In this document: piece by piece, positions 736-30,671 of the stretch | How the letters are laid out: every line of letters starts with the position of its first letter | Numbering within the stretch: position 1 is the first letter of the stretch | IMG/VR virus record: IMGVR_UViG_3300047552_000023 | Length of the DNA stretch: 34,305 nt | From: a virus | Reading direction: 5' to 3' (one strand) | The notes under the pieces: model-generated | Told to the model about the DNA's origin: nothing | What the model saw: the letters and a program-made list of their open reading frames with translations, nothing else | The model's database searches: none | Translations under genes and position numbers: made by a program

Positions 736-1686
736 ATGGCTACATATCAAACCTACACCGCTATTGGTCAGCGTGAAGACCTGTCAGATGTTATCTATGA
801 CATCAGCCCAACAGACACCCCATTGTTGAACACTTTGGCTCGTAGCAAAGCTACTGCCGTGTATCACGAATGGCAAACTGACAGCTTGGCTGCTGCTACT
901 ACTGCAAACGCTGCTGTTGAAGGTGCTGACGCATCTGACGCAACAATGTCTCCAACAACCCGCTTGGGCAACTACTGCCAAATCGTTCAGAAGACCATCA
1001 AAATCTCTGGCACTTTGGAATCTGTTGATAAAGCTGGTCGTAAGAGCGAAAAGGCTTACCAATTGAGCAAGGCTTCTGCCGAACTCAAGCGCGACATTGA
1101 AACCATCTTGACTGCCAACCAAGGCCGTGACGCTGGTACTGCTTCTGATGCTCGTAAATTGGGCGCAATGTTGTCTTGGATTAAGACCAACACAAACAAG
1201 TCTTCTGGCACTACTGCTGGTGCTGACCCAACTACCATTGGCGTTTCTACCCGTACCGATGGCACACAACGCGCTTTCACAGAGACAATCTTGAAAGACG
1301 TTATCCAGAAGGTTTACAGCTCTGGTGGCAACCCCAAGATTTTGATGGTTGGCCCATTCCAGAAGCAAACTGTGTCTGGTTTCGCTGGTATCGCTGCACA
1401 ACGCTTCATGGCTCCTGCTGACGCTCCTACAACCATCATCGGCGCTGCTGATGTGTATATGAGCGACTTCGGTACTATGTCTGTCGTGCCTAACCGCTTC
1501 ATGCGTACCCGTGACGCTTTGGTGCTTGACCCTGAATACGCAGCAGTTGCTTACCTGCGCCCATTCGCTACAAACGAATTGGCTAAGGCTGGTGACGCTG
1601 AGAAGACTCAGATCATCGCTGAATTGACATTGGAAATGCGTAACGAAGCAGCTCACGGTATCGCTGCTGACTTGTCCACTTCTTAA
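736..1686 (+). CDS. Major capsid protein (HK97-fold, SU10/DUF5309-like by motif)
   Basis: 316 aa with GGAG 7 nt upstream of the ATG. The N-terminal motif GQREDLSDVIYDISPTDTPLLN is, as I recall it, typical of this capsid family. Its position is scaffold-capsid-terminator. Confidence 0.85.
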   Translation: MATYQTYTAIGQREDLSDVIYDISPTDTPLLNTLARSKATAVYHEWQTDSLAAATTANAAVEGADASDATMSPTTRLGNYCQIVQKTIKISGTLESVDKAGRKSEKAYQLSKASAELKRDIETILTANQGRDAGTASDARKLGAMLSWIKTNTNKSSGTTAGADPTTIGVSTRTDGTQRAFTETILKDVIQKVYSSGGNPKILMVGPFQKQTVSGFAGIAAQRFMAPADAPTTIIGAADVYMSDFGTMSVVPNRFMRTRDALVLDPEYAAVAYLRPFATNELAKAGDAEKTQIIAELTLEMRNEAAHGIAADLSTS

Positions 1687-1719: not shown

Positions 1720-2028
1720 ATGCGCCACATAGCAACAGACAACGGAAAAGCAACAAACTTTCACGATCTTGATGGAAAGTATTTCATTGAGACTAAGCAG
1801 GACATTTCTGGCATCTTGGAGAGCAACAAAGCTCAATTCAACGCCATTGATGAGAAAGCTAAGTGGGGTGAGTTCACAAAGATTGCCTCATTGCCAAACG
1901 TAGTGATTGATGACTTGAACAAACAAGGCATCATGCGTGGTTATGCGGTGATGGATGAAAAAAGATTTCGTGCCTTCTTGAATCACCCTGATAATCGGTT
2001 CTTTAGAACTCGACCAGGTCAGATATGA
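1720..2028 (+). CDS. Hypothetical late protein (102 aa)
   Basis: ORF in the late operon whose stop overlaps the next start (ATGA). No SD is visible because the ATG abuts the terminator T-tract. Confidence 0.5.
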   Translation: MRHIATDNGKATNFHDLDGKYFIETKQDISGILESNKAQFNAIDEKAKWGEFTKIASLPNVVIDDLNKQGIMRGYAVMDEKRFRAFLNHPDNRFFRTRPGQI

Positions 2029-2645
2029 AGGTTGCTATTTGCGTCCCATGCCGTGACACCGTAATGACGGGTTTTGCCTTTGATTTGGCGAAGCTCTGTG
2101 CTTATGAAGGTGTTACTCGGTGCGCTAAAGGCGGCTCGTTGATGATTTATCAAGTGCCTGGCACATTGATCTTCAATCAACGCGAACGACTTGCAGAACA
2201 AGCAATCAAGGATGGCGCTGACGCTATTCTGTGGATTGACTCTGATATGCGTTTCCCAAAAGATGCGCTTCAGATTCTCTTGTCTCGTAAGTTGCCTATC
2301 GTTGGAGTTAACGCTACAACTCGCAGATTCCCATGTTTGCCTACTGCTTTGGACATTGACCAAGAGAACAATGATCTTGTGAAAGTTACAAGTAAGGATA
2401 AAACAGGGTTAGAGCAAGTTATGGGCGTTGGTTTTGGAATGGTTCTTATCCGAAAAGAAGTATTCCAAAAAACAGAAAAACCTTGGTTTTGGTTTGAACA
2501 GACCGACAAAGGTGGGACAATTGGGGAAGATATTTACTTTTGTGCAAAGGCGTTTGACGCTGGTTTCAAGACTGTTGTAGACCACGATCTATCGAAGCAC
2601 ATTAGGCATATCGGAACTTACGAATATGGTTGGGATGATGTATGA
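2025..2645 (+). CDS. GT-A fold glycosyltransferase (family-2-like)
   Basis: 206 aa. It has a DXD-type motif in ILWIDSDMRFPKDAL, then GFGMVLIRKEVF and GEDIYFCAKAFDAGF, a layout typical of small GT-A enzymes. ATGA overlaps occur at both ends. Confidence 0.65.
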   Translation: MKVAICVPCRDTVMTGFAFDLAKLCAYEGVTRCAKGGSLMIYQVPGTLIFNQRERLAEQAIKDGADAILWIDSDMRFPKDALQILLSRKLPIVGVNATTRRFPCLPTALDIDQENNDLVKVTSKDKTGLEQVMGVGFGMVLIRKEVFQKTEKPWFWFEQTDKGGTIGEDIYFCAKAFDAGFKTVVDHDLSKHIRHIGTYEYGWDDV

Positions 2646-3652: not shown

Positions 3653-4480
3653 ATGGCTGACCTGCTCCCACCGTGGACAATTGACAGCCTAGATAATCTC
3701 AAGGCTAGTCTTGACGACTTAACGCTATCTCTTGATAGTGAGTTATATACAACGTCAGTCACACTGTGGGATGCGTACGGGTCAGTATCGACTAGCGCAT
3801 CAGTATCGGCAGAATCAAGCGTCACATTTGCTGGCGCTGCTTCTGTTTCCTCATCTGCATCTGTCTCATGTGAGGCTATCCGTGTTGCACTAGGTACGGC
3901 ATCCGTAGATGCTTCTGCAAGCGTTTCTTGTGATGCTGTGAGGGTTGCTATTGGCTCGGCAGATATAAGCGCTTCTGCGGCTGTTTCTGCGGCTGGACAG
4001 CGTATTGCTATCGCATCGGCTGACGTTTCTTGCGAAGCTACTGTCACGGCTCTTGGTGGAATTGTTGCAAACGCTACGGCTGACATTTCTGCAAGTGCCA
4101 CTGCATCTGCTGATGCAATCCGAGTTCGTGAGGCTGATGCTGAAATTTCTGCATCTGCAACAGTTACCGCCTTGGGTGGTATTACGGCTGACGGGTCTGC
4201 ATCTGTAACCTGTGACGCAACATTTGAGGCTGATGGTTATGCCATATTCGATTTCACTGCGGCTGTGGATTGCAACGCTGTTGTTGTTTGCAATGGGGTG
4301 CGTGTGGGCGATAATTGGTCTAACGTACCAGTTAGCACAGATACTTGGGCTGATGTGTCGCAAAACGACAACACTTGGTCAGAATCGAGCGTAGGCTCAA
4401 ATTCTTGGTCAGATGTTGCGAGTAACTCAAACACTTGGGCGCAAACTGCCTCAAGTTCAAACACTTGGCTGAGACAATGA
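3653..4480 (+). CDS. Repeat-built Ser/Ala/Val-rich fibre-like virion protein
   Basis: 275 aa. It has about 8 degenerate 18-20-aa units (ASVSC[ED]A[IV]RVA[LI]GxA..AS) followed by six exact 10-aa W-repeats. The stop overlaps the next ATG (ATGA at 4477-4480). Confidence 0.65.
   Translation: MADLLPPWTIDSLDNLKASLDDLTLSLDSELYTTSVTLWDAYGSVSTSASVSAESSVTFAGAASVSSSASVSCEAIRVALGTASVDASASVSCDAVRVAIGSADISASAAVSAAGQRIAIASADVSCEATVTALGGIVANATADISASATASADAIRVREADAEISASATVTALGGITADGSASVTCDATFEADGYAIFDFTAAVDCNAVVVCNGVRVGDNWSNVPVSTDTWADVSQNDNTWSESSVGSNSWSDVASNSNTWAQTASSSNTWLRQ
4310..4480 (+). repeat. 30-bp-period coding repeat (6 x W-x9 decapeptides)
   Basis: DNW SNVPVST / DTW ADVSQND / NTW SESSVGS / NSW SDVASNS / NTW AQTASSS / NTW LRQ. 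Trp falls at residues 3, 13, 23, 33, 43 and 53 of this segment. aacacttgg recurs three times. Confidence 0.85.
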
Positions 4481-12281: not shown

Positions 12282-12577
12282 CCATCGAATTCAAAATTGC
12301 TCAACTTGAGCGTCAAACATCTGATGGTTTTGTGACCACAGTTCATTGGACTGCTTCTAAGACCGAAGGTGAGAACACTGTTGGCTCTTATGGAGCAGTT
12401 GGTTTCACTCAAGAAGACGGTGTAAACCTGATTCCATTTGCTGACCTGACTGAAGCAGTCGTAATTGATTGGGTCAAAGAGAAGCTAGACGTTGAAGCTA
12501 TGGAAACAGGCTTTGACGCTCAACTGGCTGAACTTGCATCTCCTTCTAAAGCCTCTGGTTTGCCTTGGGGTGAGTAA
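12278..12577 (+). CDS. Hypothetical protein (99 aa) downstream of the tail fibre
   Basis: ATGA overlap upstream and TAATG overlap downstream. I recognised no motif. Confidence 0.5.
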   Translation: MTIEFKIAQLERQTSDGFVTTVHWTASKTEGENTVGSYGAVGFTQEDGVNLIPFADLTEAVVIDWVKEKLDVEAMETGFDAQLAELASPSKASGLPWGE

Positions 12578-12780
12578 TGGCAACAGTTGATGCAACAGAT
12601 GCTCGTTTAAGTACGCATGAAGAAGTTTGTGCGCTTAGATACGAGAGCATAAATAAGTCTTTAGCACATGGCGAGCAGCGTATGACCAAGATTGAATATC
12701 TGCTCTATGCTGTAATTGCTGCTGTGTTGCTTGGCCCTGGTGCGGCGGCTGAGTTCTTTAAGAAACTTCTAGGAATCTAG
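12577..12780 (+). CDS. Small tail-anchored membrane protein (holin/antiholin candidate)
   Basis: 67 aa with a single C-terminal TM (YLLYAVIAAVLLGPGAAA). It lies in the lysis-proximal block. Confidence 0.5.
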   Translation: MATVDATDARLSTHEEVCALRYESINKSLAHGEQRMTKIEYLLYAVIAAVLLGPGAAAEFFKKLLGI

Positions 12781-12803
12781 CCATTGACCCGATTTCGCTT
12801 CTC

Positions 12804-13535
12804 ATGGCAGCACAAGCAGCAGTTGCGGCAGTCCGCAAAGGCTGTGAAATGCTGTCTGAGGGGAAAGCGGAGATCAGCAAACTCAAATCAACCGTAGAGA
12901 AGGGTATTGGTGATGCCAAAGCAATCTACAAAGAGGTCACGGGTTTATGGTCGTGGATTCTTGGATTATTTGGCAAGCAAGAAAAGAAGCCAGTTGCTAT
13001 TGCTGAACCCGTTAAGACTGACAAGGTTATCGAAGTTACTCGAAAAACCAGTAAACCTGCTAAACAAGAACTCAGTTACGAGGAATATCAAACACAAGCC
13101 ATTCATCAGGTTTGCGAGCAACTGAAAACATTTTTTGAGATTCGCAGGAATCTAAAAGCACACTGTCTTGAGTTGGAAGAAATCTCCAAAACGACAACGA
13201 CAATTGAAGACAGTGCGATTGACAGGGTGGAAATCGAGCTTCAGCTTGAAAACATGACTGTACAAATCAGGGAAGCGATGGTTTATGCGCCGAAAGAATT
13301 GAGGGCGATTTACAGTCGATTTCTTGAGATGTACGACCTAATCCTTGAAGAACAAGAGTTTGCAAGGCAACTCAAACGGAAGAACGAAAGAGATGCTAAA
13401 TGGCAACGCGAACTCCTACGCAATCACAGGGTAGATCGGGCGGTGGTGTCGGCTCTGGTCTTTCTGCTAGTTCTGTGGATGTGGGGGTTCATGCTGTCGC
13501 TAGGATGGCTCGTGAAGACACGCGCTGGTTCGTAG
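12804..13535 (+). CDS. Coiled-coil protein with C-terminal TM segment
   Basis: 243 aa. It has a long charged helical region, then AVVSALVFLLVLWMWGFMLSLGWLV. The start is uncertain: ATG 12804 has no SD, while ATG 12849 has AAAGG upstream. Confidence 0.5.
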   Translation: MAAQAAVAAVRKGCEMLSEGKAEISKLKSTVEKGIGDAKAIYKEVTGLWSWILGLFGKQEKKPVAIAEPVKTDKVIEVTRKTSKPAKQELSYEEYQTQAIHQVCEQLKTFFEIRRNLKAHCLELEEISKTTTTIEDSAIDRVEIELQLENMTVQIREAMVYAPKELRAIYSRFLEMYDLILEEQEFARQLKRKNERDAKWQRELLRNHRVDRAVVSALVFLLVLWMWGFMLSLGWLVKTRAGS

Positions 13536-13685: not shown

Positions 13686-14171
13686 ATGTTGCCAATAGTC
13701 GCTGGAATCGTAGCGAACCTAATCAACAACGGGATGCACAAGGTAGCAGACCAAGTGATTGAGAAGGGCGTTGATGCTGTACAACAAAAGCTAGGTATGG
13801 AGCTAAAGCCAGAAGGCGAAGCAACTCCTGAGTACAACGCCAAGCTCCAAGAGGAAGCCAACCGTCACAGCGAGTTCATGGCGACTCTTGATGAGAAGTC
13901 AACACAACGCGCCACAGATATGTATATGAACGATGAAGGCACACGCAAGTTTAGTCAGGCATACGCTTGGTTCATAACATCTGTTTCGTTTCTTTACTTC
14001 TTCTTGGTGTCTTTCATGCCAATTGAGAACCGTAACCGAGACTTCATCAACATCATTTTGGGTTTCTTGATTGGTACAGCGGTTAACTCGCTAATCAGAT
14101 TCTTCTACGGCTCAAGCAACAAAGCTCAAGAGGATGTGGACAAGAAGCAGAAAGAGCAGGCAGATAAATGA
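13686..14171 (+). CDS. Holin candidate
   Basis: 161 aa with an AAGGAAGGA RBS and two clear TM segments (WFITSVSFLYFFLVSFMPI, FINIILGFLIGTAVNSLIRFF). An ATGA overlap couples it to the endolysin. It resembles the GTA-type 3-TM holin family, as I recall it. Confidence 0.6.
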   Translation: MLPIVAGIVANLINNGMHKVADQVIEKGVDAVQQKLGMELKPEGEATPEYNAKLQEEANRHSEFMATLDEKSTQRATDMYMNDEGTRKFSQAYAWFITSVSFLYFFLVSFMPIENRNRDFINIILGFLIGTAVNSLIRFFYGSSNKAQEDVDKKQKEQADK

Positions 14172-17641: not shown

Positions 17642-18192
17642 TTCAAGCTCGCTTTCTTTTCATCTTTGACTGCAATGATTTTCTTTTGCCAATTAGCATC
17701 TGTGCCACAGGATTTGTAGGCAGCTTGGTAGGCTGCTTTTAACGATGCTTCGTCAATTGCGTCTTGAATAGCCGTGATGTGGTCAGCCATCATGCTGGAA
17801 TCCACAACAGTCTTTTCAGAGCGTGTTGCACGATTTCCATCATCATCTTCTGGAGCAATACCGCAAGCAGCCATCAAGCTGTAACGTCTAGCGTATGTCA
17901 GCGCAGAAGCATAACCCTGTGGGTCTTTCTTGACAGCAGGAAAGTGAACAATGCCACATTCCAACATCTCGCCTGATTCATGGACAAAGACTGTTTCGCA
18001 CATGATGCCATCGGCGCAGTCATAGTTCTTTTGCAACAGGAAAATGCCGTTGTTGTTTAAAGCGTCAATGACAGCCTCAACGCAAGCAGACAGGTCTGCA
18101 TACTTAGAACGGAAATGAGGGTTTGTAGATGTCTTTAAAGCAGGGCCAAAGGCTTTCTGTGCTTTGACCAAAGCTGATGCGATGTTTTTCAT
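17638..18192 (-). CDS. erf: ERF-family single-strand annealing protein
   Basis: 184 aa. NPHFRSKYADLSACVEAV...VHESGE...GYASALTYARRYSLMAACGIAPEDDDG is the classic ERF motif set. Confidence 0.85.
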   Translation of the reverse strand: MKNIASALVKAQKAFGPALKTSTNPHFRSKYADLSACVEAVIDALNNNGIFLLQKNYDCADGIMCETVFVHESGEMLECGIVHFPAVKKDPQGYASALTYARRYSLMAACGIAPEDDDGNRATRSEKTVVDSSMMADHITAIQDAIDEASLKAAYQAAYKSCGTDANWQKKIIAVKDEKKASLK

Positions 18193-18905
18193 GCTTGTAC
18201 TCCAAAATTAAAAGCAATCAATTGACAAAACAAACGGTATTGCTCTAAATGTTGTTGATTGTTTTTGTGAGTGTTTTCAATTTGTTTTAAAAATTCTGCA
18301 ACTGTTCCTGAGAAACAACCACAAACAACACGGACACCTAATTTGTCGTCAACAAAAGCTGTTGTAAACCGCCCAGATGATTTTGCAGGCCCAATAAGTA
18401 ACCATTCAGTCCTGCCGGAGACCAACGCATCGCCGGAGACCCACGCATCGCCGGAGACCTGCGCATTGCCGTAGACCCGCGCATTGCCGGAGACCAACGC
18501 ATCGCCGGAGACCCACGCATCGCCGGAGACCTGCGCATCGCCGGAGACCTGCGCATTGCCGTAGACCCGCGCATTGCCGGAGACCTGCGCATTGCCGTAG
18601 ACCTGCGCATCGCCGGAGACCTGCGCATCGCCGGAGACCTGCGCATTGCCGTAGACCTGCGCATCGCCGGAGACCTGCGCATCGCCGGAGACCTGCGCAT
18701 TGCCGTAGACCCACGCATCGCCGGAGACCTGCGCATTGCCGTAGACCCACGCATTGCCAATCTGACTTAGATTTTTTTCTGATTCAACATATCCACCCAA
18801 ATCATTAGGAGCAACTAACTCGCCAATTGCAACAATCGCTTTGATTCGGTAAAGTGTTTTACCAAAAAACTGTTTTGTGTCGGTTTTTACAAGTTCGTAT
18901 TTCAT
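18189..18905 (-). CDS. Hexapeptide-repeat (predicted left-handed beta-helix) protein
   Basis: 238 aa from ATG 18905 (MKYELVKTDTKQFFGKTLYRIKA...). It has 19 consecutive G[DN]A[QWRL]V[SY] units, then a C-terminal domain containing VVCGCFSGTVAEFLKQIENTH. The track start at 19007 is upstream read-through in the same frame. Confidence 0.8.
   Translation of the reverse strand: MKYELVKTDTKQFFGKTLYRIKAIVAIGELVAPNDLGGYVESEKNLSQIGNAWVYGNAQVSGDAWVYGNAQVSGDAQVSGDAQVYGNAQVSGDAQVSGDAQVYGNAQVSGNARVYGNAQVSGDAQVSGDAWVSGDALVSGNARVYGNAQVSGDAWVSGDALVSGRTEWLLIGPAKSSGRFTTAFVDDKLGVRVVCGCFSGTVAEFLKQIENTHKNNQQHLEQYRLFCQLIAFNFGVQA
18417..18758 (-). repeat. 19 x 18-bp tandem coding repeat
   Basis: The units are ggagacctgcgcatcgcc and close variants, parsed one by one. 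18597-18650 is duplicated perfectly at 18651-18704 (54 bp = 3 units). All three minus frames are open, which produces two artefactual track ORFs. Confidence 0.95.
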
Positions 18906-19102
18906 TACTTTGCTCCAAAGACAAGCATTGCTGTGATGAAGCCAGCAACAAATGCGTAAAGAATGTTGAGATATTTTTCGTGGTCTGGAGTGTGTGCTTC
19001 CATCCACTCGCCTTGTTGTATGCGCTGAACGTCTTGAACGTTGCTTGGGAACGCTTCTTCAAGAGTGCGTGGAAATGTGCGGGTGGTGTCGTTGACTTTC
19101 AT
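18905..19102 (-). CDS. First leftward early gene: 65-aa tail-anchored membrane protein
   Basis: MKVNDTTRTFPRTLEEAF... with a C-terminal TM YLNILYAFVAGFITAMLVFGA. GGAG lies 5-8 nt upstream of the ATG. A TAATG overlap links it to the next gene. Confidence 0.55.
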   Translation of the reverse strand: MKVNDTTRTFPRTLEEAFPSNVQDVQRIQQGEWMEAHTPDHEKYLNILYAFVAGFITAMLVFGAK

Positions 19103-25900: not shown

Positions 25901-25924
25901 AAGGCAGTTCGCTGCCTTCTTTTT
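25901..25924 (+). terminator. Strong rho-independent terminator between the early and late operons
   Basis: AAGGCAG (25901-25907), loop ttcg, CTGCCTT (25912-25918), then cttttt. It lies 45 nt after the last early stop and 11 nt before the first late ATG. Confidence 0.8.
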
Positions 25925-25935
25925 GAAAGGCTCTT

Positions 25936-26364
25936 ATGGCTGGCTTACTCGCCCCTGCTGCTGAAATCAAAGTTGAAATCGAGGAAATCGAGGCAGAAAA
26001 GCCCGTCATCGAAGGCTTGACAGCAGAATCAAACAAAAAAACACGCGATACCTTGGTTGAGACTCAGATGCTCGGCCCTGTCAAGGTTGACGCTCCAAAC
26101 AGCGAATACTGGCGCGGTCTTGCTAACGTCTGGCGTACATCTCCTGACCAAGCAAAACGCCGTCTGTGCGCTAATTGCGAATACTTTGACGACCAACCTG
26201 AAACCTTGGAAGCAATGGAAGTCGTGCCACAGGATGAGTTTGACAAAGACGGTGGTGGTCGTGGTTACTGCCACAAGTTTGAGTTCATTTGCCACAACCT
26301 TCGCGTCTGTAAGGCTTGGGAAAAAGCACCTGTGATGAAAGAGGCTGAGTATGAAGATGACTAA
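25936..26364 (+). CDS. Cys-cluster protein with HiPIP-like C-terminal motif
   Basis: 142 aa with a GAAAGG RBS and an acidic N-terminal half. The C-terminus is RLCANCEYF...GYCHKFEFICHNLRVCKAWEKA. For comparison, HiPIP as I recall it reads CANCQFM...GCQLFPG...WCASW. Confidence 0.5.
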   Translation: MAGLLAPAAEIKVEIEEIEAEKPVIEGLTAESNKKTRDTLVETQMLGPVKVDAPNSEYWRGLANVWRTSPDQAKRRLCANCEYFDDQPETLEAMEVVPQDEFDKDGGGRGYCHKFEFICHNLRVCKAWEKAPVMKEAEYEDD

Positions 26365-26515
26365 AGCTGGAGCCAAGAAAGTTGGCAAAGTAATGGGCGA
26401 ATACAAATCTGGCACTTTGCACTCAGGCAAAGGTGGAAAGGTTGTCACAAACCCAAAGCAAGGCATCGCAATCGCTTTGAGCGAGGCTAAAAAAGTGATG
26501 AAAAAGAAAAAGTGA
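26351..26515 (+). CDS. DUF6496-like basic microprotein (54 aa, below the track cutoff)
   Basis: Hand translation gives MKMTKAGAKKVGKVMGEYKSGTLHSGKGGKVVTNPKQGIAIALSEAKKVMKKKK. GAGG lies 6 nt upstream. It overlaps the upstream gene by 14 nt and the next gene by GTGA. Confidence 0.55.
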   Translation: MKMTKAGAKKVGKVMGEYKSGTLHSGKGGKVVTNPKQGIAIALSEAKKVMKKKK

Positions 26516-27144
26516 TTCCAAAGCGGCTTCACTTTGTTTGGGTCGGTGACGAATCCAAACGACCAGATCATTGCATTGAGACTTGGAAAACCCTGAATCC
26601 TGACTATGAGGTGAGGATTTGGGGCAATGCAGACCTGAAAAACACAAAATGGTTCAATGCCAAGCACATTCAGGAAATGGCTAAACACGAACTTTGCGGT
26701 GTTGCCGACCTGATGCGCTATGAAATCCTTTACAACGAAGGCGGGATAACGCTAGATGCTGATTCTGTCTGCCTTGCACCGCTAGAGGATTGGCTACTAA
26801 AGCCTGATGCTTTTGCGCATTGGGAACAGGAAACCCGAAGACATGGGCTGATTAACGTCAGCGTCATGGGTTCAATTCCACAAAATCCCTTCTTTGGTCA
26901 ATGTATTGAAGACCTAAGAGCCAAGGAAACCGTCACAAAGTACAGAGCTTGGGAAACAACTGGCCCAATGCACATTACTGAGGTTTACCATCAAACAGAG
27001 TATCCATTGACTGTTTACCCTTCACACTATTTCACAAGAGATCACTTCTCTGGATATAGGTACAAAGGCAACGGTCATTGTTTCGCTACCCAATTTTGGG
27101 GTTCTACAAAAGGCTATGAAAGGGCTAAAGAGTGGAAGATTTGA
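26512..27144 (+). CDS. DXD glycosyltransferase of the Gly_transf_sug type (GT32/Och1; TcdA/B-like sugar-binding region)
   Basis: 210 aa from GTG 26512. IPKRLHFVWVGDE and VADLMRYEILYNEGGITLDADS match the LHFVWIGG / ASDILR..L...GG.YLDVD signature. Confidence 0.8.
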   Translation: MIPKRLHFVWVGDESKRPDHCIETWKTLNPDYEVRIWGNADLKNTKWFNAKHIQEMAKHELCGVADLMRYEILYNEGGITLDADSVCLAPLEDWLLKPDAFAHWEQETRRHGLINVSVMGSIPQNPFFGQCIEDLRAKETVTKYRAWETTGPMHITEVYHQTEYPLTVYPSHYFTRDHFSGYRYKGNGHCFATQFWGSTKGYERAKEWKI

Positions 27145-27764
27145 TCGAAAACAGAGACGGATGGTGGTGGCCGAAGGCTGACGTTGAGGCGTGGAAATGG
27201 ATTCCCCGTGAGATGCAGGCCATCCCTGAGTTGGTGAAGTGGGTCCCACAGCGTAATTTGGTTCTCCATGCTGGTGGCAATTGCGGTGTCTGGTCAAAGA
27301 TTTATTCACAGCTTTTCACCAAAGTCGTGACTTTTGAGCCTGATGATGTGAACTATGAGTGCTTCAAGCGCAACGTAGACGAGCAAAATGTGGAAATCTA
27401 TAAGGCTGGTCTGTCTGATAAAGCAGGTTTTTGCCGCATGGTTGAGGGCGATGGCGAGAAGAACGCTGGTGCGCTCCAGATTGAGGAATGTGAATCTGGC
27501 ATCCCAATGATGACCATTGACAGCCTGAATCTTGACCCTGATTTGCTTCAGTTGGATGTTGAAGGGTTTGAGGAAAATGCACTCAAAGGCGCAAAGAAAA
27601 CCATCATGCGCTCACGCCCGATCATCATCATTGAGCAAAAGAAGCTCGGCAAAAACGGCATGACAGACCCCGAAATTGCTATAATGATTCAACGAATGGG
27701 CTACTTTTTCGCAGAGCGAGTGTGGTCTGATAACGTCTTTATTCCTGTGGAATTGGTTGACTGA
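27132..27764 (+). CDS. FkbM-family SAM-dependent methyltransferase
   Basis: 210 aa from GTG 27132 (13-nt overlap). VLHAGGNCGVWS...VVTFEPDDVNYECFKRNV...YKAGLSDKAG...DLLQLDVEGFEENALKGAKKTIMRSRPIIIIE is the Methyltransf_21/FkbM pattern. Confidence 0.8.
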   Translation: MEDLIENRDGWWWPKADVEAWKWIPREMQAIPELVKWVPQRNLVLHAGGNCGVWSKIYSQLFTKVVTFEPDDVNYECFKRNVDEQNVEIYKAGLSDKAGFCRMVEGDGEKNAGALQIEECESGIPMMTIDSLNLDPDLLQLDVEGFEENALKGAKKTIMRSRPIIIIEQKKLGKNGMTDPEIAIMIQRMGYFFAERVWSDNVFIPVELVD

Positions 27765-29164: not shown

Positions 29165-29431
29165 ATGAGCAAAGCTGGTCGCCCCATTGGGAAGTTACAT
29201 CAAGACGACATTCGCAAGAAAATCCAAGCGAGTCAATTGATAAATGTCTTGCAAGATCATGCACTTACAGGTGAAGGCGAAATAACGCCTACACGCATGA
29301 AAGCAATTGAAATCCTTTTGCGTAAATCTATACCTGATTTGAGTTCTGTTGAGATTAGCGGTGACGAGGCAAACCCGCTAAACATGATTCAGACCATCAA
29401 CATCAATCTCAAGAAGCCTAATGAATCTTGA
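29165..29431 (+). CDS. terS: Terminase small subunit (putative)
   Basis: 88 aa. MSKAGRPIGK...TPTRMKAIEILLRKSIPDLSSVE resembles small-terminase N-termini. It overlaps the terL start by 11 nt. Confidence 0.55.
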   Translation: MSKAGRPIGKLHQDDIRKKIQASQLINVLQDHALTGEGEITPTRMKAIEILLRKSIPDLSSVEISGDEANPLNMIQTININLKKPNES

Positions 29432-30671
29432 ACTAGATTTCCCTGAAAAACTGGGATTCTTGTTTGAGCCAGCACGATACAAAATCCTTTACGGTGGTAG
29501 GGGTTCAGGTAAATCGTGGGGTGTTGCTCGCGCTTTGATCGCCATTGCAGTTCAAAAGCCGACTAGGGTTCTCTGCGCCCGTGAGCTTCAAAACTCAATC
29601 TCAGACTCAGTTATTGCCCTGCTCCATGACCAAATCAAGGCTATGGGGCTTGAGTCGTTTTTTGACGTACAGCGTACAGCTATCTACGGAGTCAACGGCT
29701 CTGAGTTCTCGTTTGCTGGTCTGAAACACAACGTCACATCCATCAAGTCGTTTGAGGGCGTGGATATTTGCTGGATTGAAGAAGGTCAGGCGGTGTCTAA
29801 AGTCTCTTGGGAAACCCTGATTCCTACCATCCGCAAGCCAAACTCTGAGATTTGGGTGACTTTCAACCCTGATCTAGATACTGACGAGACTTACAAGCGA
29901 TTCGTGATTAACGCGCCAGCAAGCGCACAAGTCCACAAGGTCAACTGGTCTGATAACCCTTGGTTTCCTGAAGTTCTCAAAGAGGAGCTTGAAAACCTCA
30001 AAGAGAAGGACATGGACAGCTATCTCAACGTCTGGGAAGGTCACACCCGTCAGATGTTGGATGGCGCTGTTTACGCTAACGAGCTAAGAAAAGCCCAAGA
30101 GGACAACAGAATCCGTGACTTGCTGATTGACAAGACTATCCCTGTCCAGACGTTCTGGGACTTGGGGTGGGCAGATATGACTTCAATTTGGTTTGTTCAG
30201 GCAATCCCTGGCGGTGAAGTGCGAGTCATCGACTTCTATCAAAACTGCCAAAAGCCAATTGACCACTACGCTCAAATCCTGCAAGACAAGGGCTACATCT
30301 ATCGTGATTGGTGGCTACCACACGATGCAGAACACAAGAATATGACGGGTCGTTCGGTCAAAGACATTCTGACTGAGATGGGCAAACCAGTACGAATCAC
30401 GCCAAAACTGTCAATTTCTGACGGTATCAACGCTGCTCGTATGCTGCTCAACAGGTGTTACTTTGACGAAACACGCTGTGCTGACGGACTCCAAAACCTA
30501 CGCCATTACCGCTATGACGTAGACCCAAACACAAAGATGTTTAGCAATAAACCGCTTCACGATCAGCACTCACACGCTGCTGACGCTTTCCGTTACCTTG
30601 CCGTTGGACTAGATGAATCAGGTTCATCTTGGTCTAAATCCATCAACCAACCAAAGAAATGGGTCGTATGA
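29421..30671 (+). CDS. terL: Terminase large subunit
   Basis: 416 aa. It has a Walker A in YKILYGGRGSGKSWGVARAL, a Walker B-like VDICWIEEGQ, and C-terminal nuclease acidic residues (WDLGWADMT, HDAEH, HAADAFRY). Confidence 0.9.
   Translation: MNLELDFPEKLGFLFEPARYKILYGGRGSGKSWGVARALIAIAVQKPTRVLCARELQNSISDSVIALLHDQIKAMGLESFFDVQRTAIYGVNGSEFSFAGLKHNVTSIKSFEGVDICWIEEGQAVSKVSWETLIPTIRKPNSEIWVTFNPDLDTDETYKRFVINAPASAQVHKVNWSDNPWFPEVLKEELENLKEKDMDSYLNVWEGHTRQMLDGAVYANELRKAQEDNRIRDLLIDKTIPVQTFWDLGWADMTSIWFVQAIPGGEVRVIDFYQNCQKPIDHYAQILQDKGYIYRDWWLPHDAEHKNMTGRSVKDILTEMGKPVRITPKLSISDGINAARMLLNRCYFDETRCADGLQNLRHYRYDVDPNTKMFSNKPLHDQHSHAADAFRYLAVGLDESGSSWSKSINQPKKWVV

Follow-up and report, generated by a model that had tools for sequence, protein, structure and literature searches.

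A GT32 glycosyltransferase and FkbM methyltransferase pair in a small freshwater podophage, with a third enzyme next to the capsid gene, as a candidate pathway for O-methylated virion glycans

To our knowledge, experiments demonstrating that phages glycosylate their virions with enzymes of their own are limited to a few mycobacteriophages, in which antibody recognition is changed as a result. For the mycobacteriophages Che8, Corndog and Myrna it was proposed that soluble glycosyltransferases encoded by the phage decorate its own capsid (Freeman et al. 2023, summarized in PMC12363180), and this is the closest demonstrated system to the one described below. Here we describe a 34,305-nucleotide stretch of virus DNA (IMG/VR record IMGVR_UViG_3300047552_000023; in the following 'the window' refers to this whole stretch) that carries a GT32-type glycosyltransferase and an FkbM-type methyltransferase as an overlapping gene pair, together with a small GT-A glycosyltransferase at a second locus. 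The arrangement resembles that of the mycobacteriophages in that the glycosyltransferases are phage-encoded and soluble and the genes are accessory, being found in only some relatives. It differs in the enzyme families (GT32, FkbM and a small GT-A similar to A197), in having its genes at two loci some 10 kb from each other and in the likely Gram-negative hosts, and its glycan is a predicted one.

A second point of comparison is found in bacteria, in which islands containing GT41 along with methyltransferases of the FkbM or AdoMet type were described as flagellin glycosylation islands (PMC4875605). The islands found here with the order GT2-GT32-MT23-GT41 (Roseateles, Pelomonas, Aquabacterium) share with the phage an orthologous GT32 (53-58% identity), a methyltransferase directly downstream and what appears to be a cytoplasmic pathway of multiple glycosyltransferases leading to a methylated protein glycan. 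On the other hand, the phage pathway is without a GT41/TPR initiating enzyme among the proteins scanned, and it has FkbM in place of Methyltransf_23. Giant viruses provide a third comparison: among their enzymes for capsid and fibril glycosylation, A064R of PBCV-1 combines glycosyltransferase and methyltransferase domains, GT32-like folds are common in this group, and Catovirus has a "glycosyltransferase and methyltransferase domain protein". As proposed for the window, a glycosyltransferase and a sugar O-methyltransferase acting on virion glycans are encoded by the virus itself, but these are fused multidomain proteins of eukaryotic viruses and only distant relatives, with an identity of 13-24%.

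The explanation that we favor is that a protein of the virion, in all probability the major capsid protein, may receive a short O-methylated glycan through the action of the three enzymes (GT-A, GT32 and FkbM). We put this forward tentatively, with a confidence that falls just short of even. The genes concerned are:

26512..27144, + strand: GT32-type DXD glycosyltransferase, GTG start, 210 amino acids (aa), soluble (PF04488, motifs, AlphaFold2 model, Foldseek)
27132..27764, + strand: FkbM-family methyltransferase dependent on S-adenosylmethionine (SAM), GTG start, 210 aa (PF05050, TIGR01444, phrog_8156)
2025..2645, + strand: small GT-A glycosyltransferase of 206 aa, with the capsid block on one side and the tail-tube/adaptor gene on the other (invariant motifs, AlphaFold2 model, Foldseek)

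The start of the GT32 gene overlaps the stop of the gene upstream (GTGA), and both this start codon and that of the methyltransferase are backed by full-length homologues starting at the same residues. In a Pfam profile search the protein matches PF04488 (Gly_transf_sug) with an E-value of 1.3e-10 and 42.2 bits, against a cut-off of 23 bits. Both the N-terminal h-h-H-x-x-W motif and the DXD metal/nucleotide-sugar motif are conserved, with H7, W10, G12 and the DXD residues D82 and D84 invariant in 55 homologues. An earlier reading, made from the sequence only, had quoted these motifs and assigned the gene to a DXD family; the open reading frame (ORF), the motifs present in it and the profile match above cut-off bear this out. 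The AlphaFold2 model shows a compact GT-A fold at a predicted local distance difference test (pLDDT) score of 93.6, and the ratio of nonsynonymous to synonymous substitution rates (dN/dS) of 0.04-0.12 points to strong purifying selection. GT32 is a retaining GT-A family, and retaining transfer from a nucleotide sugar is predicted on the basis of this membership.

The sequence-only reading had also pointed to the glucosyltransferase domains of large clostridial toxins, leaving open that a host protein is glycosylated directly. In this alternative the GT32 enzyme would modify a cytoplasmic protein of the host (for example a factor of defense or translation), much like SetA, YeGT, PaToxG and the clostridial domains with their targets in eukaryotes, and the methyltransferase would act independently. 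In its favor, the best solved structures found for the model with Foldseek are protein-glycosylating effector domains (YeGT, 8ovt, 1.8e-10; PaToxG, 4mix; SetA, 8x4k), and in several relatives the next gene encodes an ART-like putative effector, though at sub-threshold level (ART-PolyVal matches in the slot after the pair in L149 at 12478-13530 and in L150 at 12362-13387). However, the fungal Och1 (9n3s, TMq 0.67), which comes next in the ranking, is an equally good match. The structural matches are moderate (template modeling (TM) score of about 0.6, with 13-22% identity to the GT-A domains of Och1, toxins and effectors) and reflect the shared GT-A core. Indeed, what the phage enzyme has in common with these domains is the N-terminal hydrophobic-His-x-x-Trp nucleotide-binding motif, the DXD and the GT-A core; it is a minimal core of 210 aa against toxin domains of about 540 aa, without their helical bundle and insertions and without the membrane anchor of the Och1 type. 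The match to PF12919 (TcdA_TcdB, E-value 1.4e-7) comprises residues 4-59 only, corresponding to profile positions 1-56 of 382, and sequence matches in the Protein Data Bank (PDB) are limited to residues 2-45. The resemblance to the toxin domains is therefore correct only at the level of a shared N-terminal nucleotide-binding and DXD core. Membership of the large clostridial toxin family (PF12919/GT44) was rejected because the match covers only this core and the protein measures 210 aa. Overall, we consider a toxin-like effector quite improbable.

The methyltransferase gene overlaps the GT32 gene by 13 nucleotides and the following gene by 8 nucleotides. Its product matches PF05050 (FkbM; E-value 2.5e-11, 44.5 bits against a cut-off of 22.7), TIGR01444 (fkbM_fam; 67.6 bits against a 37.7-bit cut-off) and phrog_8156 (methyltransferase; E-value 8.7e-29), so that the FkbM-type assignment and the 13-nucleotide overlap given earlier are both confirmed by the profiles and the ORF coordinates. 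The description of the glycosyltransferase as 'fused in an operon' with FkbM holds for the overlap but is inexact for the fusion, as these are two separate overlapping genes. Residues invariant in 23 sequences include the SAM-binding glycines G48 and G52, E69-P70 and D142-V-E-G-x-E147, and a dN/dS of about 0.06 again points to strong purifying selection.

The two genes are gained and lost together. A scan of viral contigs based on the glycosyltransferase yielded 57 loci at 75-97% identity (before removal of duplicates), in all of which FkbM directly follows. A second scan was anchored on the conserved upstream gene for a 142-aa protein and also recovers relatives in which other genes come after this gene and its DUF6496 neighbor. 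Among the 59 distinct related loci, both genes are present in 46 and neither in 13, whereas not a single locus has one alone; FkbM directly follows GT32 in all 46 distinct loci with enough downstream DNA. Because of this distribution, and as judged from gene content, the cassette is an optional insert that moves as a whole.

Outside this group the methyltransferase itself varies. In the more distant phage L150, of which the portal is 60% identical to that of the window, a second gene of the GT32/Gb3-synthase-like type and then Methyltransf_24/31 come after the GT32 orthologue, which has 61% identity. At locus L063 an FkbM gene lies within the same island as the GT32 orthologue, and at L149 the partner of GT32 is a 226-aa protein that is not FkbM and has no Pfam match. 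In bacteria, for which context was counted over 80 loci, Methyltransf_23 is found immediately downstream of the GT32 orthologue in 60 of the 80. If the sugar added by the glycosyltransferase is the site of methylation, the partner would be expected to be replaceable by methyltransferases of unrelated families, as seen here. From this swapping and the strict linkage we infer that FkbM O-methylates a sugar hydroxyl. The suggestion that the two enzymes form a working pair thus appears to hold, given their joint gain and loss and the retention of a methyltransferase partner despite the change of family. The same linkage with swapped families argues for a sugar as methyl acceptor and hence against a toxin-like effector.

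At 53-69% identity, the near relatives of the phage GT32 are common enzymes of glycan islands in Proteobacteria from freshwater and soil, encoded on the chromosome in small islands with multiple glycosyltransferases. Of the 80 loci, 44 have GT41/TPR genes in the vicinity and 37 have GT2 genes, and in about 30 (Roseateles, Pelomonas, Aquabacterium and relatives) the island is located between motA and flhC. The best cellular match, in Polynucleobacter (69% identity), adjoins a GT2-TPR-GT9 protein, and an exhaustive profile-free search revealed fusions of the GT32 module to TPR-GT41 (P0285) and to GT2-TPR (P0293). As far as is known, characterized GT41 enzymes (a CAZy family) are protein glycosyltransferases. 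Since the orthologues sit in, or are fused to, TPR/GT41 systems, and islands with GT41 and a methyltransferase were described as flagellin glycosylation islands, this GT32 subfamily most likely extends glycans on proteins and not on lipids. Where the sequence-only reading had allowed for a protein or lipid acceptor, a protein is now favored by these contexts and fusions (and within the phage by the virion and capsid evidence given below), and a lipid seems less likely. No match to GT41 or TPR was found among the window proteins scanned.

The fusion proteins have the order GT32-TPR-GT41 (P0285) and GT32-GT2-TPR (P0293), and a further protein of 1,410 aa (P0274) contains two GT32 copies, GT2 and GT4. 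The order GT2-GT32-Methyltransf_23-GT41 between motA and flhC is seen at L168, L170, L181, L183 and about 25 more loci (Roseateles, Pelomonas, Paucibacter and related Burkholderiales). This is probably a flagellin glycosylation island, apparently undescribed; its position suggests that flagellin is the target.

The bacterial orthologues bear on all three alternatives. For a toxin-like effector they add a further objection, as the close orthologues are glycan-chain enzymes in islands with multiple glycosyltransferases; together with the 56 of 382 profile positions and the small size, the idea that a host protein is glycosylated in this manner is not supported. A second alternative is that the enzymes glycosylate and methylate modified bases of the phage DNA. 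Phage GT-A and GT-B enzymes that glycosylate 5-hydroxymethylcytosine do exist (bioRxiv 10.1101/2023.12.21.572611), but the orthologue contexts in our case are protein-glycan islands and the record has no Tet/JBP dioxygenase. Likewise, neither a thymidylate-synthase-like hydroxymethylase nor a cytosine methyltransferase or epimerase was found among the window proteins scanned against Pfam, a scan that did not cover every ORF. DNA modification is in our view very improbable, and both this and the toxin-like explanation are weak. The term 'GT32' in the cited preprint is a contig number only.

The third alternative is a serious rival, in which the pair, with or without the GT-A enzyme, remodels the host surface by altering a flagellin or adhesin glycan or an undecaprenyl-linked intermediate of O-antigen or capsule, thereby blocking superinfection or the sticking of progeny to debris. 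That the nearest cellular orthologues are host-type glycan-island enzymes at the identities given is consistent with capture from a host. Moreover, the Pfam scan contains a sub-threshold Caps_synth match, and the cassette behaves as an optional, moron-like insert. However, each of the three enzymes looks like a soluble protein, and genes for a flippase or for a membrane partner of the GtrA/B type are lacking nearby, while the lack of any integrase seen in the window makes lysogenic conversion unlikely. Taken together with the genomic evidence that follows, we regard remodeling of the host surface as rather unlikely.

The third glycosyltransferase, which had been noted at 2025-2645 from the sequence, turns out to be a real GT-A enzyme based on motifs, model and structural matches, and it co-occurs with the pair. 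The protein has no Pfam match. Its invariant residues are D72-S-D74, E168-D169, H187 and H195, the AlphaFold2 model (pLDDT 93.4) has a GT-A fold, and dN/dS is as low as 0.01-0.03. Foldseek returned COLGALT1 (a collagen hydroxylysine galactosyltransferase; 2e-10), STIV A197 (PDB 2c0n; 3e-9) and LH3, with which the phage protein shares the small GT-A fold and the DXD at an identity of 12-16%. COLGALT1 and LH3 glycosylate protein side chains, and A197 is a viral glycosyltransferase of about 200 aa from a virus with a glycosylated capsid protein.

The GT-A gene occupies a fixed slot (capsid gene, gene of about 100 aa, GT-A, tail-tube/adaptor gene), and in relatives without it the flanking genes are joined directly. 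Homologues of the gene occur on roughly 1,000 contigs. It is present in all nine complete genomes that have the GT32 and FkbM pair (window included) and in none of the five complete or near-complete relatives that do not (in the following glyco+ and glyco- genomes, respectively). The two loci lie about 10 kb apart, with a terminase in between of which the type is shuffled among these same genomes. Both loci (GT-A and GT32) are also found in the distant phage L150. Remodeling of the host surface leaves unexplained why the pair is inherited together with a glycosyltransferase adjacent to the capsid gene, and equally why the capsid itself falls into two types. The features relevant to the latter are:

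736..1686, + strand: major capsid protein, candidate acceptor (phrog_1328; identities and dN/dS split with the glycosylation genes)
1177..1263, + strand: capsid loop, residues 148-176, in alignments the most divergent region between the capsid types, Ser/Thr-rich and with a 4-residue insertion
1720..2028, + strand: 102-aa protein between the capsid and GT-A genes (phrog_3982; co-varies with the capsid type)

The capsid protein splits into two types that track the glycosylation genes. Identities are 84-98% within glyco+ genomes and 89-97% within glyco- genomes, against 68-73% between the groups. The portal, the scaffold and the gene at 2642 fail to separate the two groups, and the glyco+ genome G004 even shows a greater distance to the window than the glyco- genomes do. 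Between the window and glyco- genomes the capsid gene has a dN/dS of 0.33-0.42, and its dS is the lowest among the genes compared; dN/dS is 0.08-0.14 within glyco+ genomes and 0.03-0.18 for neighboring genes. In the loop, Gly-Thr-Thr at capsid residues 158-160 is present in 8 of 8 capsids with an adjacent GT-A and in 0 of 9 without, a motif that we regard as a lead only.

Two other proteins were considered as acceptor and rejected. The 102-aa protein has an identity of 52-67% between the groups and of 66-89% within glyco+ genomes, and in glyco- genomes its gene directly abuts the homologue of the 2642 gene; it co-varies with the glycosylation genes but is not Ser/Thr-rich. For a Ser/Thr-rich fiber-like protein (3653-4480) the identities do not separate glyco+ from glyco- genomes.

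A number of observations weigh against glycosylation of the capsid. The five glyco- genomes are close kin (portal 87-96% identical), so the counts are not independent, and because of this relatedness the genes may have been jointly absent since one event in evolution. GT-A is also found without GT32 and FkbM in other phages such as MW202496 and MW202711, which makes the link one-way only, although this fits a pathway in which GT-A performs the first step and the pair extends it optionally. As for the elevated dN/dS of the capsid, a divergent allele acquired by recombination and carried along with the neighboring GT-A gene could be its source. As to the loop, the Gly-Thr-Thr pattern was spotted post hoc, and the GT-A-less phage MW202879 shares other features of it. 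Some FkbM homologues of cultured phages are located in nucleotide-metabolism regions. The homologue in Stenotrophomonas DLP6 lies between ribonucleotide reductase genes and that in L072 adjoins a cytidylyltransferase; these contexts are of no help regarding the acceptor, and neither is a Sinorhizobium paper in which an FkbM-like gene is merely mentioned. Finally, a tblastn search of the three proteins against 50,697 phage records matched no mycobacteriophage record and, because no homology was found, the likeness to the mycobacteriophage system is functional only.

In favor of a virion target, an unrelated siphophage of the HK97 type (L071) has an FkbM protein 39% identical to that of the window, encoded after the capsid gene and before the connector gene and beside a Maf-like protein. 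The region concerned (L071:6384-9618) contains an MptE/Maf-like ORF, a weak GT8-like ORF, the FkbM gene and two ORFs of no assigned family, and it is another candidate virion-glycosylation block.

Returning to the capsid as the favored acceptor, the pathway could proceed in three steps. The capsid-adjacent GT-A enzyme, of which the nearest folds are protein-glycosylating enzymes, would place the first sugar on the protein. GT32, as a member of a retaining DXD family, would then add an alpha-linked hexose from a nucleotide sugar, after which FkbM would use SAM to methylate a sugar hydroxyl and so cap the chain. Glycosylation would take place in the cytoplasm, before or during assembly, and the phage might benefit, for example, from masking or stabilization of the particle. 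What the sequences show is the family and fold of the three enzymes, their intact catalytic motifs, purifying selection, co-inheritance and the co-variation with capsid type; the acceptor, the donor sugar, the order of the steps and the benefit to the phage we infer. In its most specific form the proposal is that small freshwater podophages of Gram-negatives O-glycosylate their own capsid by a split three-enzyme pathway borrowed from bacterial islands for protein glycosylation, that the capsid has co-evolved with this pathway and offers a Thr-rich surface loop (148-176) as acceptor, and that particles coated with methylated sugar and uncoated ones coexist within one phage population. This form is possible, but we hold it with considerable doubt.

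Around the pair, the following elements can be distinguished:

25901..25918, + strand: terminator-like hairpin with T-run, in the 80-nucleotide gap just upstream of the module
25936..26515, + strand: two conserved upstream genes with translational coupling to the glycosyltransferase, encoding a Cys-rich protein of 142 aa and a DUF6496 protein of 54 aa
27757..29118, + strand: variable 453-aa gene downstream of the pair and before the terminase, only in some relatives and not conserved with the pair

The 142-aa and DUF6496 genes are also present in phages without the pair and are thus not specific to it. The 142-aa gene (25936-26364), at the head of the module, is the most conserved of the region (77-100% identity, dN/dS 0.04-0.19). 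Its product has no Pfam or PHROG match, and it is labeled 'high potential iron-sulfur protein' in MW202462. The 453-aa protein of the window likewise has no Pfam match. From 25936 up to the large terminase gene, genes overlap or are at most 34 nucleotides apart. These overlaps and short gaps, in combination with the upstream hairpin, suggest that the cassette is co-expressed late with packaging and head genes, and the hairpin may mark the boundary of a late operon. Coupling to late packaging genes and not to early ones is a further argument against remodeling of the host surface. A scan for promoters and terminators was discarded, as site counts were at chance level; the hairpin at 25901 alone is suggestively placed.

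The window corresponds approximately to the full genome length of a podophage that is small and modular, with the scaffold gene divided between its ends. Genes are in the order portal, scaffold, capsid, tail and ejection, endolysin, Erf/YqaJ recombination and replication, followed by packaging. By capsid protein the closest cultured relative is Methylophilales phage Venkman (53% identity), and the likely hosts are Gram-negative freshwater Betaproteobacteria. The 56.9-kb source record (G000) has a second copy of the capsid gene at 35162-36112, 90% identical and 34,188 bases downstream of the first. It thus seems to be an assembly that joins two related strains and spans about 1.66 times the genome length. 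The true genome size is about 34.2 kb. At 29421-30671, two unrelated types of large terminase (about 86-95% versus about 40% identity to that of the window) alternate among otherwise near-identical phages, and recombination has its hot spot in the stretch from the pair to the portal gene. For the genes at 13686-14171 and 18189-19007, comparison with nine complete relatives revealed no homologue, and they are strain-specific cargo.

If capsid glycosylation is true, self-glycosylation would be a wider phage trait, extending to abundant freshwater podophages with a methylated glycan on their capsid. Particle stability, grazing, adsorption and recognition by host defenses could all be affected, and the glyco+ and glyco- sister genomes offer a ready natural comparison. 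The case also links a compact and little-studied GT32 subfamily to bacterial protein glycosylation by way of GT41 and the flagellar islands. What it contributes is the co-inheritance of split loci, natural sister genomes, a burst of amino-acid replacements confined to the capsid and a GT32 whose orthologues belong to GT41 and flagellar islands.

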